IMG/VR virus record: IMGVR_UViG_2675903352_000001
Source: a virus
Taxonomy: Monodnaviria > Loebvirae > Hofneiviricota > Faserviricetes > Tubulavirales > Inoviridae
DNA length: 8,367 nucleotides
Direction: 5' to 3' (one strand)
The notes under the pieces are model-generated. The model was given only the letters and a program-made list of their open reading frames with translations, searched no databases and was not told where the DNA came from. A program made the position numbers and the translations under genes. Below, piece by piece: positions 912-3,410 of this stretch (its first letter is position 1; the number at the start of each line of letters is the position of its first letter).

Positions 912-2131
912 TCAGACCCGCCGGGCCTGAAGAACAACGATGATATCGGTTTTGGCCCGTTCATCAGAGTCTGAACCAAACACATCCGGCAGAAATGAAA
1001 GCCCTGTCCGCGCTTTTGACGTCTTGTTCTCCGCCAGTCCGCCCAGCACAATGATATCACCGTCATTCAGACTCACCGACGTGGACACCTCGCGCTTTAT
1101 CAGCGTTGGCGTGTTATTCACCCCCGTATCCGTTTTTGCAAAGTTACTCAGCTGCTGAACGATATCCAGACCTATCACATCCTGCGTCACGGTGGGTTTT
1201 ACCCGAAAAATAGCCCCGCTGCTGCGGTATTCCACGGACTGCACCGGAACCTTATCCTGCCATGACACCGATGACAGAACAGGCACATCAGACCCCACGC
1301 TGAAAACCGCCTCCTTACCGGAGATAACGCGCAGACGTGGCGAACTGACCACCTGAAACGGCTGTCTGTCCTGAATAACTCATACATTGCATCAACAGAC
1401 CCAGTGCTGAGACGAATAAAGTTATCCAGCCCCGATGCGCTGCTCATGGTGATACTGAAACGACCGGATAAAAGCTCTGCGGCCAGCGCCAGACCTGAAC
1501 CGTTACGCTCACTGGTCTGGACCTCAAACACATACCCGGCAACCGAAACCTCCTGTGCTCTGACATCAATCTGCGGCAGAAGCTGCCGGACAAGCTCCAC
1601 TTCCCGGGCCGTTCCCCGGAACACAAACACATCCCCGGATGCACTGATAAACCGGGTACCACTGCTGACCGCCTGCCATGTCTGCTCACCGTTTGCCCCC
1701 TGAACCGGCTGTTGTGCGGCCGGAAGCTGACCCAGACCGGAAAGCGCCTGATGCAGATACTCCACTGTCCGGTAACGGGGCGTGTAAACAAGGGATTTCA
1801 GCGGCTCCTCTGGTGCGGCAGGTGTATGACTGTAAATATAATCAACGCCCTTTTTACGGCTTATCCTGATATTCATATTACCGAGATAACGGGTAATAAA
1901 TTCCCGTTCATCGATATCCGGTGAAATATGCAGCGTGACGGCCCGCGGGTCATTGACCAGTTCAGGGGCCAGCATGAACGGTGTTTTCAGGACTTCAGTC
2001 CAGAGCAGCGTCACCGCATCAGGCAGGCTCATGCGGTTAATATCCAGTTCCGTCCCGGCTGAAAACGACGGCAGCGGGAAAAACAGCGCCATTGCAGGCA
2101 GCACCGGGAGAAGTAATTTTCTGATATTCAT
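912..2131 (-). pseudogene. pIV-like secretin (filamentous phage export channel), disrupted by a frameshift near 1353-1382
   Basis: N-terminal part in the frame of ORF 1199..2131 (signal peptide MNIRKLLLPVLPAMALFFPLPSFSAG, GYVFEVQ motif) reads sensibly to ...TDSRF and then becomes nonsense. The conserved secretin C-domain (QVVSSPRLRVISGK...IIVLGGL...) continues in the frame of ORF 912..1352, which opens after a stop at 1380-1382. The two frames overlap around rc(1353-1360) CGTTTCAGG, consistent with a 1-nt deletion. Confidence 0.8.
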
Positions 2132-2140
2132 ATTCTGTCC

Positions 2141-2439
2141 CTATGGTGTGGTGAGAGAAACGGACATCCCCCCGGCACCGCTGCCGGACGAACGCGACGG
2201 GGAAGGTTCACTGCCTGACCCGCTGTGAAACGTGATGTGTTCGCCATCCAGTTCCAGTACAGTAAGCAGCCCTTCATACGGCTGTTCACTGCGCACAAGC
2301 CGCGTGACGTTGCTGTTACTGCGCAGAATAAAAACTCCCTGCCCGTTGCCGTCACGCATATGACCGGAAAGCCGCCAGACACGGGAAAGCGGCAGTTCTG
2401 CCGCAGATGCGACCTGTGGTACAGGCGGCGCTTTTTCAG
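2141..2439 (-). pseudogene. Out-of-frame remnant encoding the C-terminal periplasmic domain of pI, cut off by the 13-bp duplication
   Basis: ORF 2141..2359 (…GNGQGVFILRSNSNVTRLVRSEQPYEGLLTVLELDGEHITF…) sits one frame off from pI. Deleting one 13-bp repeat copy fuses it in frame to pI: the frame offset is 295 nt, and 295 minus 13 is 282, a multiple of 3. Its stop at 2141-2143 lies 9 nt before the secretin start. Confidence 0.6.
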
Positions 2440-3410
2440 TGGTGGTTACCTGTGGTGGTTACCTGTGGTGGTGCCTGCATGACCGTTGCCGCTGGTTCAT
2501 CAGGTGTGCCGGAGAAAAAATCCAGCACAAGACGTCCCCAGAACCAGAAAAACAGGCCACCCACCACAACGGACAACAGTTTTTTACGGCGCGCCTGCTG
2601 CTGCTCCTTTCGTTCCTCTGCCGTGAGGGGCTGCAAATCCCCTTTCTCCTGCCGCTCACGCAGCCGCCGGAACTGCCGGAGGGTTCTGCCGGGCAACAGG
2701 GAATACATGGCGCGCATATCACAGACCCGCTGATGCTCACCCGTTCCGAGCAGTTCCATTCCGTCATCAAACACCATGTTCGTCGGATGGATACCGTAAA
2801 AGGACGGCGCATAAAAAACGCGGGATTCATTGGGACGGGAATTCGCCCGGGGAACACCGATATAAATTTTTGCCGAAATCAGGTGCGGCAGAAGCCCTTT
2901 CCGGCTGCCCGTATCGCCAAACTTATCCGGCATGCAGAGTTCCAGAATATCGGACACGACCGGGACACGAATACGATCAAGACGACGACAGCGGACAATC
3001 AGCTCCCCCGTGGATTTAAATATTTTGCTGTCAACGGCGGATTCATCCTGCACCTGAATATAAACATCCCAGCCCAGTTTCCCGGACTGCACAAACCATT
3101 TGTAATATTCCAGGTATTCCCGGCCGGAAGATGTGCCGTTAAGCCATGTTCCGACCTCATCCAGAAATAACGCCCCAAACCGCTCCTTCTCATTTTCATC
3201 ACAACCACGCCCCAGCGCCCAGAAATCTTCAGGACGAGGACGGGCCGGAAGCACGGTCACCGGATGCGATGAAGCCGGGTCCATTTTTTCAGTATCAAGC
3301 GGGTAATTTGCCGCAATTCTGTGTCCGCGACGGTAAAACTGTTTTGCCACCATGGAGCAGAACAGCCCCTTCCCGTTGCGCATTTTTCCTGTCACCCAGT
3401 AAACAGCCAT
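2436..3410 (-). CDS. pI/Zot-like phage assembly ATPase, C-terminally truncated (324 aa as encoded)
   Basis: N-terminus MAVYWVTGKMRNGKGL... closely parallels M13 gene I protein MAVYFVTGKLGSGKTL... as recalled. Further conserved blocks LDEVGTW, KLGWDV, VRCRRLDRI. A transmembrane segment LLSVVVGGLFFWFWGRLVL is followed by only 28 residues before the stop. Start ATG at 3410-3408, 7 nt after the pVI stop. Confidence 0.85.
   Translation of the reverse strand: MAVYWVTGKMRNGKGLFCSMVAKQFYRRGHRIAANYPLDTEKMDPASSHPVTVLPARPRPEDFWALGRGCDENEKERFGALFLDEVGTWLNGTSSGREYLEYYKWFVQSGKLGWDVYIQVQDESAVDSKIFKSTGELIVRCRRLDRIRVPVVSDILELCMPDKFGDTGSRKGLLPHLISAKIYIGVPRANSRPNESRVFYAPSFYGIHPTNMVFDDGMELLGTGEHQRVCDMRAMYSLLPGRTLRQFRRLRERQEKGDLQPLTAEERKEQQQARRKKLLSVVVGGLFFWFWGRLVLDFFSGTPDEPAATVMQAPPQVTTTGNHH
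2440..2465. repeat. Perfect 13-bp tandem duplication TGGTGGTTACCTG x2 (plus partial third copy TGGTGGTG at 2466-2473)
   Basis: Read directly: 2440-2452 and 2453-2465 are identical. The pI stop codon (rc of 2436-2438) falls just after the repeats. Confidence 0.9.

Follow-up and report, generated by a model that had tools for sequence, protein, structure and literature searches.

Frameshifts in the assembly and export genes of a dif-integrated inovirus prophage of Escherichia albertii

The inovirus prophage of Escherichia albertii NIAH_Bird_8 carries disruptions in gene I, which encodes the pI/Zot assembly ATPase, and in gene IV, which encodes the secretin pIV. The question raised by this locus is whether the two disruptions reflect a selected or switchable loss of virion export, as proposed in an earlier note on this DNA, or the ordinary decay of a prophage. 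The window analyzed here is a stretch of 8,367 nt, in which genes IV and I together occupy exactly positions 912-3410. We propose, with a probability of about 0.8, that the element is an ordinary single-copy dif prophage whose export was recently lost by two independent slippage-type frameshifts.

Boundaries and gene content of the prophage

The prophage is located on contig BBVQ01000057.1 of E. albertii NIAH_Bird_8, where a single inovirus prophage of 8.05 kb lies on the minus strand at dif; all features described below are on the minus strand unless stated otherwise. The first 222 positions of the window (1..222) belong to the chromosomal flank outside the prophage and encode a host Phd/YefM antitoxin (Pfam PhdYeFM_antitox, E=4.5e-12), after which a Fic/Doc gene comes in L003. 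The dif site AGTGCGCATAATGTATATTATGTTAAAT at 415..442 marks the prophage end on the pIV side and differs from the E. coli dif by one mismatch, while no match was obtained in 200 shuffles. Its partner, the hybrid site GGTGCGCATAATGTGTTACACGTTATGT, is located at L003 4946-4973, ~70 bp past the right end of the window, and shares the XerC arm. The two sites enclose one prophage copy, i.e., the dif array consists of one copy, and no second copy was found in the 27.7-kb NIAH_Bird_8 contig. None of the ten window ORFs scanned matched an integrase family in Pfam. Flanked by dif and by a hybrid dif-like site and without its own integrase, the element belongs to the dif/XerCD-integrating class, and its E. 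coli relatives occupy the same locus, adjoining hipBA. It is also of the Inoviridae type, as it possesses a rolling-circle Rep, small coat genes, a pIII-like gene, pVI and Zot/pI, arranged on one strand within a size range of 6-10 kb. This assignment is backed by matches to Rep_trans, Zot and Secretin, by the PHROG annotations 'protein I of M13' and 'attachment protein' and by the gene order. The non-coding region between gene IV and dif (443..911) contains terminator-like sites at 691-672 and 532-503 and presumably holds the origin and packaging signal; it differs from the nearest relatives (L010 and L014) by one SNP at 796.

The earlier note regarded the replication and coat genes as intact, and this holds: every gene besides I and IV is intact and has 100% identical copies in other strains. 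The pVI-like minor coat gene (3418..3777; 119 aa; PHROG 27651, with a weak match to 'minor head protein') includes a T7 run at 3685-3691. The adjacent gene for the pIII-like attachment protein (3780..5135; 451 aa; PHROG 17820, 'attachment protein') includes a (GATGGT)6 linker repeat at 4786-4821 identified with Tandem Repeats Finder (TRF), and its exact protein is found in other genomes. Both products are 100% identical to those of L005, L008 and L009. The pVIII-like major coat gene (5189..5509; 106 aa; PHROG 17608) is 100% identical in L010, L014 and L017 and is directly followed by a terminator-like hairpin at 5153..5168. The long leader of the pVIII-like protein holds a diverged 45-bp duplication (TRF 5392-5485). 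This gene was considered as a third lesion and rejected, because a length of 106 aa, with an insertion of 15 residues, is the rule in all E. albertii copies of the Rep_trans type. Two small hydrophobic ORFs, p52 (5530-5688; 52 aa) and p33 (5691-5792; 33 aa), take up the pVII/pIX position (5530..5792); they are 100% conserved in relatives, have no family match in PHROG and, given their position and size, are putative pVII and pIX.

The gene in the pV position (5803..6138; 111 aa; PHROG 14411, function unknown) is 100% identical in relatives and presumably encodes an ssDNA-binding protein, judging from its position. The rolling-circle replication initiator Rep_trans (6148..7344; 398 aa; Pfam Rep_trans, 1.6e-21; PHROG 'replication initiation protein', 1e-108) is found as the exact protein on 11 contigs, and exact look-up revealed 100% identity in other genomes. 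Rep, the pV-like protein, p33, p52 and pVIII are all 100% identical to those of L010. An intact 65-aa ORF (7344..7541) lies upstream of Rep, followed by a divergent regulatory region (7542..7675) with a private SNP at 7579, where the sense strand has G in the window vs. A in all 21 other Rep_trans-type copies. On the plus strand are an intact 70-aa ORF divergent from the replication genes (7679..7891; 100% identical in relatives; PHROG 2503, function unknown), which by position is presumably a repressor gene, and, at the far prophage end, a 57-aa membrane-like ORF (8194..8367; gene call L003 5044-5217; WP_001409659.1 in E. coli copies).

The lesions in genes I and IV

Gene I (2141..3410) is a pseudogene. 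Its called ORF (2436-3410; 324 aa) consists of 320 native residues and the residues GNHH and ends with a TGA at 2436-2438, while the remainder of the gene continues in another frame up to the native stop codon at 2141-2143. Alignment with the intact E. coli homologues of E24377A and JNE25-005 places a 13-bp insertion at ~2460-2472. The site is a perfect 13-bp tandem duplication at 2439..2472 (TRF: period of 13, 2.6 copies, 100% match), which on the sense strand reads ACCACCAC-AGGTAACCACCAC-AGGTAACCACCAC, then the premature TGA, and which sits between pre-existing 6-bp CACCAC direct repeats. The frameshift in pI is thus caused by the repeat to which the earlier note had drawn attention. The membrane helix of pI is formed by residues 278-296 and the frame is lost after residue 320; as the break falls just beyond the helix, the 98-residue periplasmic domain (2141-2435), now out of frame, is lost. 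The P-loop domain, membrane helix and periplasmic C-terminal domain of a functional pI/Zot therefore no longer share one frame. In Ff phages, the periplasmic domain of pI contacts the secretin. The repaired pI is 418 aa long and matches Pfam Zot (E=8.8e-10) and the PHROG family 'morphogenesis protein I of M13' (1.6e-36).

Gene IV (912..2131), also a pseudogene, is represented by two ORFs that are two frames of one gene, 1199-2131 (310 aa) and 912-1352 (146 aa). Comparison with relatives revealed a 1-bp deletion that reduces a T4 run to TTT at 1356..1358. The resulting product has 259 native residues, which include the signal peptide and N domains, and 51 out-of-frame residues before the stop at 1199-1201, whereas the secretin domain (912-1352) is in a different frame and without a signal peptide. 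In the repaired pIV of 406 aa, Pfam Secretin covers residues 254-404 (1.8e-25). With the frame lost after residue 259, the entire secretin barrel is lost, and signal peptide, N domains and C-terminal barrel are not found in one frame as in a functional secretin. The truncated pI (WP_237764133.1) and pIV proteins are found in NIAH_Bird_8 assemblies only.

As the earlier note stated, pI and pIV are each independently disrupted, one by a 13-bp duplication and the other by a 1-bp deletion. Assembly of Ff phages requires the interaction of pI/pXI with pIV (PMC8563730). Since pI and pIV are both broken, self-export is very probably lost, and filamentous ssDNA virions are predicted not to be produced; the suggestion that particles cannot be extruded without help is a reasonable inference by analogy with Ff phages (PMC8563730), whose pI shares only 33% identity with that of the window over the N-terminal half. 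In the course of events that we propose, the 13-bp tandem duplication arose between the two CACCAC direct repeats in gene I, so that pI, plus any internally started pXI-like product, now ends 24 residues past the membrane helix. The T4 run in gene IV lost one T, and the product is a fragment of periplasmic N domains that lacks the barrel in the outer membrane. Both lesions are probably neutral, or almost neutral, as long as the prophage stays repressed, and they probably mark the beginning of the ordinary decay of a prophage rather than a state that is selected or regulated.

Age and origin of the lesions

The earlier note had suggested comparing related prophages for the same lesions; they are absent from every other E. 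coli and E. albertii copy in the survey, as 39 of 39 have a single 13-bp unit and an intact T4 run and the window is the sole exception among 40. The duplicated 13-mer gave no exact-pattern match in species-representative genomes and none in metagenome contigs. At the protein level, repaired pI and pIV show 100% identity to those of E. albertii CP043262.1 (L010), with nine differences that are all synonymous, and 98.6% and 99.8% identity, respectively, to those of E. coli E24377A (L001). On the 3' side of the pIV lesion, seven synonymous and no non-synonymous differences from E24377A were found, which indicates that there has been no further decay. Compared with all fetched relatives, the private changes of the prophage amount to two indels and two SNPs only. 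Based on these sequence comparisons, the two frameshifts in the window are very recent.

Recent and private changes could also be sequencing or assembly errors or have arisen during laboratory passage. The NIAH_Bird_8 genome is a draft obtained by Illumina MiSeq sequencing (PMC4700944), and the gene IV lesion falls in a homopolymer. The lesions are known at the level of assemblies, which would be compatible with a mixed population or a laboratory-passage mutation. Run DRR017189 was independently assembled in Logan, where the sequence agrees over 12,240 bp and contains both lesions, which speaks against the assembly errors that the earlier note had named as a refutation. Although the Platanus and Logan assemblies may share one read set, two assemblers give the same sequence, and a perfect 13-bp duplication is untypical of read or assembly error. 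Illumina MiSeq also seldom miscalls runs of 3-4 bases. We consider it very doubtful that one or both lesions are artefacts.

To place the two lesions in the context of the family, independent disruptive events were counted in ~40 related copies from 26 genomes of E. coli and E. albertii. Of the ~40 copies, 18 have one or more disruptive lesions, and the 14 independent lesions are distributed over pIV (4), pI (3), pIII (3), pVI (2) and Rep (2), a spread that agrees with gene length (Monte Carlo p=0.26). They include ISEc31 insertions in pIV, at positions that differ between E. coli E94 and JNE25-003, independent frameshifts of pI in JNE23-001 and 503025 (copy 3), and a T7-to-T6 frameshift in pVI of L010. 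An apparently damaged pVI in E. coli 504211, annotated with 255 nt, was rejected, because tblastn finds the full 119 aa open and the short annotation is thus an issue of start-codon assignment. In some arrays, e.g., JNE23-001 (pI), JNE25-001 (pIII::ISEc31) and L014 (pVI), every copy has the same lesion. Such identical tandem copies were rejected as proof of replication after inactivation, as Rep-defective copies are duplicated too, namely in UTME-13, which shows that array growth needs no phage replication. The relatives have one morphogenesis module joined to several unrelated replication modules and often form mixed tandem arrays at dif. In a megablast search, the window as a whole gave no match in the phage collection, so that no described phage in it is closely related, and a search of the genome collection with the repaired pI found no confirmed relative. 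Literature searches yielded nothing specific on this family in ETEC or E. albertii, nor on surveys of defective inovirus prophages.

Against this background, the statement that export was lost selectively and not by random decay is not sustained. Inactivation of pI and pIV could have been favored, e.g., by the cost of a phage secretin in the outer membrane, while the replication and coat genes were kept. The lesions of the window are confined to the two export genes, and the repeated ISEc31 insertions in pIV and independent pI frameshifts in relatives point in the same direction; by target size, however, the probability that both lesions of the window fall in pI/pIV is 0.13, and in the family export genes account for 7 of 14 lesions vs. 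5.0 expected (p=0.21), with pIII, pVI and Rep also damaged. Indels make up ~10% of spontaneous mutations in E. coli mutation-accumulation studies. If this proportion applies, frameshifting indels in two of four private changes have a probability of ~0.05, which leaves some room for selection or mutational hot spots. Ff mutants that are defective in assembly and still replicate are known from classical genetics to be harmful to the host, so that replication without export is not an obviously favorable state. In favor of adaptive loss, mutant f1 pIV channels allow bile salt and antibiotics to leak into E. coli (PMC8563730). On balance, adaptive loss is unlikely; if true, it would suggest that phage secretins impair the fitness of enteric hosts, which the data do not show. 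The switchable state that the earlier note attributed to the repeat in pI fares worse. Slipped-strand loss of one unit of this perfect tandem repeat would restore the exact wild-type frame and sequence, and the flanking CACCAC repeats, which account for its origin, would permit its collapse too. Phase-variable virion production would nonetheless be expected to show repeat numbers that vary among related strains with both states common, whereas the copy number is invariant in the family, with a single unit in all 39 other copies, the array has just 2.6 copies, the genome and metagenome scans gave no further instance and the Logan assembly takes one path through the site. The separate frameshift in the short T3 run of gene IV would have to revert as well, and a reversible switch is highly improbable.

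The defective genome could alternatively be a satellite that still replicates and whose packaging and export depend on a relative, either co-resident or superinfecting, as the source of pI and pIV in trans. Helper-dependent filamentous elements do occur in Vibrio (RS1 and TLC), and both the sharing of a morphogenesis module across unrelated replication modules, with frequent mixed arrays, and the arrays with the same lesion in all copies, in which defective genomes are still amplifiable, would fit this possibility. The dif array of NIAH_Bird_8, however, holds one copy with no other in the contig, the UTME-13 duplicates reveal that arrays can grow without phage replication, and there is no sign of selection of these lesions for life as a satellite, which makes helper dependence very unlikely. 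A broader form of this idea, in which export-dead dif inovirus copies are kept as replication-competent elements that are amplified in arrays or mobilized by module-sharing relatives, is speculative and quite unlikely. If it were true, the knock-out of pI and pIV, together with the private A-to-G change at 7579, which falls in the -35-like hexamer of the promoter of the replication operon, would indicate that the element is becoming helper-dependent or domesticated by its host. Translational bypass of the lesions is extremely improbable. The gene IV sequence allows a -1 slip of tRNA-Phe at CGU-UUC-AGG, with the rare AGG in the A site, and the product ...SRFQVVSS... would be exactly wild type. 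Programmed frameshifting would entail a conserved site and two-frame layout, whereas the relatives are in frame at both sites, with an in-frame T4 in 39 of 39, and no stimulatory element was identified at the gene IV site. In gene I, a +1 shift would be necessary before CAC-UGA, a position at which re-pairing is impossible, so that recoding would yield at best trace pIV and no functional pI.

Recent loss of export in an ordinary prophage, the reading that we prefer, has mainly consequences for annotation: genes I and IV should be flagged as pseudogenes and the prophage probably makes no virions unaided, with little wider import. The survey provides a small but useful baseline for an under-described family of Escherichia inoviruses, in which lesions scale with gene length and whole tandem arrays may be identical defective copies.

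Comparison with known systems

The gene order of the window, from Rep through the coat genes to pI and pIV, is that of the Ff phages (f1/M13/fd). The domain layout is also shared with Ff phages: in pI, a Zot/ATPase domain at the N-terminus precedes one membrane helix and the periplasmic C-terminus, and in pIV, the secretin barrel comes after the N domains (PMC8563730). The protein search of the phage collection with pI found only Ff-type phages, with 33% identity over half the protein, i.e., the first 219 residues. Unlike in Ff phages, Rep is of the Rep_trans type, the Walker A motif of pI, read directly, is GKMRNGKG without the usual S/T, and the element, in contrast to the non-temperate Ff phages, integrates at dif. 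Like this family, CUS-1 of E. coli K1 and YpfPhi of Yersinia pestis use the Xer system of the host to integrate at dif, have an imperfect hybrid dif site at one of the junctions, form tandem arrays of 2-4 copies and possess a modular genome with a divergent rstR-like regulator (PMC4266046). In the review of these phages, their organization is described as CTXphi-like and the words secretin and pIV are absent (PMC4266046), whereas this family encodes its own pIV. Both phages are absent from the matches in the phage collection and are likened to the window by description only.

RS1 and TLC of Vibrio cholerae replicate, integrate at dif and cannot make their own export apparatus. They are without any morphogenesis genes and evolved with helpers, whereas in the window these genes are present and freshly broken and the 27.7-kb contig has no helper. 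The closest counterparts are the intact Escherichia copies (L010 and E24377A), which have the same gene order and the same dif integration as the window and encode a pI of 418 aa and a pIV of 406 aa where the window carries the 13-bp duplication and the 1-bp deletion.

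Two frameshifting lesions in genes I and IV

In reverse complement, the window corresponds to positions 5044-13410 of locus L003, part of contig BBVQ01000057.1 (assembly GCA_001514805.1) of Escherichia albertii NIAH_Bird_8, a strain from a bird in Japan (PMC5797873) whose draft genome was assembled with Platanus from Illumina MiSeq reads (PMC4700944). Prophages in complete E. coli genomes are ~96% identical to the window and ~98% identical over gene I (2141-3410, minus strand; profile match to Zot and 'morphogenesis protein I of M13') and gene IV (912-2131, minus strand; profile match to Secretin), which in E. 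coli measure 1257 and 1221 nt, respectively, and are annotated as intact. Alignment of positions 912-3410 with these prophages reveals exactly two length differences, one per gene, and fully confirms the earlier observation that pI and pIV are each disrupted. In lesion 1, gene I has gained 13 bp; Tandem Repeats Finder scores the site (2439-2472) as a perfect array with period 13 and 2.6 copies, which reads ACCACCAC AGGTAACCACCAC AGGTAACCACCAC on the sense strand, followed by TGA. Without the duplication, the ancestral gene has two CACCAC hexamers 13 bp apart, a classic replication-slippage substrate. Lesion 2 is the loss of one T from a T4 run of gene IV, leaving TTT at 1356-1358.

The truncated pI keeps 320 native residues, to which GNHH is added; because its single membrane helix lies at residues 278-296, the periplasmic part of 122 residues loses all but 24. 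For pIV, 259 native residues with the signal peptide and the N domains are kept and followed by 51 aberrant residues, while the reading frame that now encodes the Pfam Secretin domain (residues 254-404) has no signal peptide. In the Walker A motif of pI (residues 8-15, window 3365-3388), GKMRNGKG, Gly replaces the canonical Ser/Thr; by direct reading this motif is also found in the intact pI of E. coli E24377A and is thus a family trait rather than a lesion.

The sequence data, as far as they go, show the lesions to be real and very young. Over 12,240 bp, both lesions included, an independent Logan assembly built from run DRR017189 agrees exactly with the GenBank contig. Among ~15 billion catalogued proteins, the truncated pI (WP_237764133.1) and the two pIV fragments are confined to assemblies of this strain. 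When one 13-bp unit is removed and the T restored, pI and pIV show 100% protein identity to the intact genes of the syntenic E. albertii chromosome CP043262.1, with only nine differences, all synonymous. A k-mer comparison with all fetched relatives leaves just two point changes private to the prophage, at 1559 (synonymous) and 7579 (intergenic), so that the two frameshifting indels make up the rest of only four private changes. Downstream of its frameshift, gene IV differs from that of E24377A by seven synonymous and no non-synonymous changes, which indicates no further decay. The Logan contig stops at window position ~1171, inside a gene IV segment (1104-1227) that may be repeated elsewhere in the NIAH_Bird_8 genome; gene IV fragments (124 bp, ~650 bp in some) are found on E. 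coli plasmids of 98-105 kb (H69-H80).

Condition of the other genes

The replication and coat genes are intact, as the earlier note had judged, and have exact or 100% identical counterparts in other genomes. Exact copies of Rep (6148-7344; profile match to Rep_trans) and of the pIII-like protein (3780-5135) are called on contigs of other genomes; the pV-position protein (5803-6138), two small hydrophobic ORFs (5691-5792 and 5530-5688) and the pVIII-like protein (5189-5509) are 100% identical to those of two E. albertii loci (L010, on CP043262.1, and L014), and the pVI-like protein (3418-3777) to that of L005, L008 and L009. All are encoded on the minus strand, as is a 65-aa ORF (7344-7541), while a 70-aa ORF (7679-7891, plus strand) is divergent from them. 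We predict that the prophage can still replicate, integrate and make coat proteins, since the genes concerned and its non-coding sequence match those of relatives that look functional.

At 106 aa, pVIII exceeds the E. coli form (91 aa) by 15 residues. We rejected the extra residues, which come from a diverged 45-bp tandem duplication in the leader (5392-5485, 81% match), as a third lesion, because every E. albertii copy with a Rep_trans-type replication module has the long form as its standard. The pIII linker (GATGGT)n, encoding Asp-Gly, has six units here (4786-4821) and ~5 (L013), ~11 (L014) and ~16 (L010) in otherwise near-identical prophages. At SNP 7579, in the regulatory region 7542-7675, the sense strand has G, vs A in all 21 other Rep_trans-type copies of E. 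coli and E. albertii. Upstream of the 65-aa ORF/Rep operon and beside a repeated GCGCATGCG palindrome, it makes TTGTGA out of the -35-like hexamer TTATGA (followed by a 17-bp spacer and TATATT), and could be a promoter or operator change.

Selective loss of export, repeat switching or decay

The lesions had been proposed to represent selective loss of export rather than random decay. Given the gene lengths, two random hits in this prophage would both fall in pI or pIV with P = 0.13 and one in each with P = 0.065. In a census of ~40 copies in 26 genomes, collected from exact-protein look-ups and complete E. coli genomes with every gene scored by tblastn, 18 of the roughly 40 copies have disruptive lesions, spread widely over genes. 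Independent events number four in pIV (window; ISEc31 at residue 398 in E94, at residue 290 in JNE25-003 and in a second, rearranged JNE25-003 copy), three in pI (window; a +2 frameshift around residue 242, shared by the two JNE23-001 copies; residue 287 in copy 3 of 503025), three in pIII (a frameshift near the C-terminus, seen in several E. albertii strains; ISEc31, shared by the two JNE25-001 copies; multiple stops in copy 3 of 503025), two in pVI (a T7-to-T6 frameshift, once in L010 and L014 and once more in E. coli 503025 copy 3) and two in Rep (IS1A in RM14721; a frameshift in both UTME-13 copies). These 14 events are consistent with gene length (Monte Carlo p=0.26), with 7 in export genes vs 5.0 expected (p=0.21) and 4 vs 2.5 in pIV alone (p=0.23), and the nearest relatives of the window prophage have one different lesion, in pVI. 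The family pattern is therefore decay proportional to target size, not loss directed at export. If indels make up about one tenth of spontaneous mutations, the proportion in E. coli mutation-accumulation work, two frameshifting indels among four private changes (p ~0.05) give a weak hint of selection, although it is tempered by the slippage-prone nature of both sites.

The earlier suggestion that the pI repeat holds the prophage in a switchable state fares no better. Loss of one 13-bp unit would restore gene I exactly, so its reversion is mechanistically possible, but the unit is single and the pIV run is T4 in 39/39 other copies, exact-pattern scans of genome and metagenome collections found the duplication nowhere else, and gene IV would require its own reversion. 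A two-unit repeat that is invariant in the family does not qualify as a contingency locus. Translational bypass could in principle act on pIV, where a -1 slip at CGU-UUC-AGG would recreate the wild-type protein, but there is no sign that this slip is efficient, and gene I lacks a +1 site that would serve ahead of its stop codon. Target-size decay remains our preferred reading.

The pVI T7 run is intact in the window (3685-3691) and shortened to a frameshifting T6 in three copies of two E. albertii genomes (L010 at ~12700; both L014 copies) and in one E. coli copy (503025 copy 3, L030), which suggests a homopolymer hot spot that is hit repeatedly. In E. coli E94, JNE25-003, JNE25-001 and pJNE25-005_3 (L018, L020, L022 and L021), ISEc31 occupies several distinct sites in the family (pIV residues 398 and 290, pIII residue 437), which suggests repeated targeting or spread within arrays.

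Integration at dif, export capacity and known relatives

A dif site with one mismatch to that of E. coli (415-442, minus strand) and a hybrid dif-like site ~70 bp past the right end of the window, with the XerC arm in common, mark one 8.05-kb prophage copy integrated at dif. Positions 1-414 are host DNA with a Phd/YefM antitoxin gene. A toxin-antitoxin pair directly adjoins dif in both species: PhdYefM-Fic/Doc in E. albertii (window 1-222 and L003 13189-13793) and hipBA in E. coli (L001, E24377A, 11388-11914), where hipA is a pseudogene in E24377A and 504211. Elsewhere in the family, a single, almost invariant morphogenesis module (pVIII to pIV) is paired with several unrelated replication modules (L005, L008, L009, L023-L029, L031), namely Rep_trans, a 660-aa Phage_GPA endonuclease and three 'phage/plasmid replication' variants with their own ssDNA-binding gene and regulator, and differing types lie side by side in tandem arrays at dif of up to at least 4 copies. 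Some arrays have the same lesion in every copy (L026, pI +2 frameshift; L022, pIII::ISEc31; L014, pVI T6; L031, Rep frameshift), so defective copies are still duplicated, those defective in Rep included, and phage replication is not needed for duplication. A circular 9,613-bp 'plasmid' record of E. coli JNE25-005 (NZ_AP045060.1, pJNE25-005_3), a related inovirus ~91% identical and with ISEc31, may be a replicative form captured by assembly; its many broken ORFs may reflect poor consensus quality.

Two independent slippage mutations thus cut pI short past the membrane helix and deprive pIV of its barrel. In Ff phages, pI/pXI and pIV form a trans-envelope machine whose periplasmic contact is required for assembly (PMC8563730), and by this analogy the window prophage would not extrude virions by itself. 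Of the earlier picture of an inactivated export machinery in an otherwise working prophage, the very probable loss of self-export stands, while selective loss and the repeat switch are unsupported. No helper inovirus was seen in the dif array, which has one copy.

RefSeq annotates the prophage family and PHROGs include it; a literature search found no paper describing it, and a nucleotide search of the phage collection with the whole window gave no match. The closest described phage protein to pI is that of Ff gene I, with 33% identity across 219 residues. Filamentous prophages that have become defective are well known, and the window adds a new one that was broken only recently. In its workings the element resembles an Ff-type inovirus that encodes its own secretin, to which is joined dif integration that matches what has been described for CUS-1, YpfPhi and CTXphi (PMC4266046).
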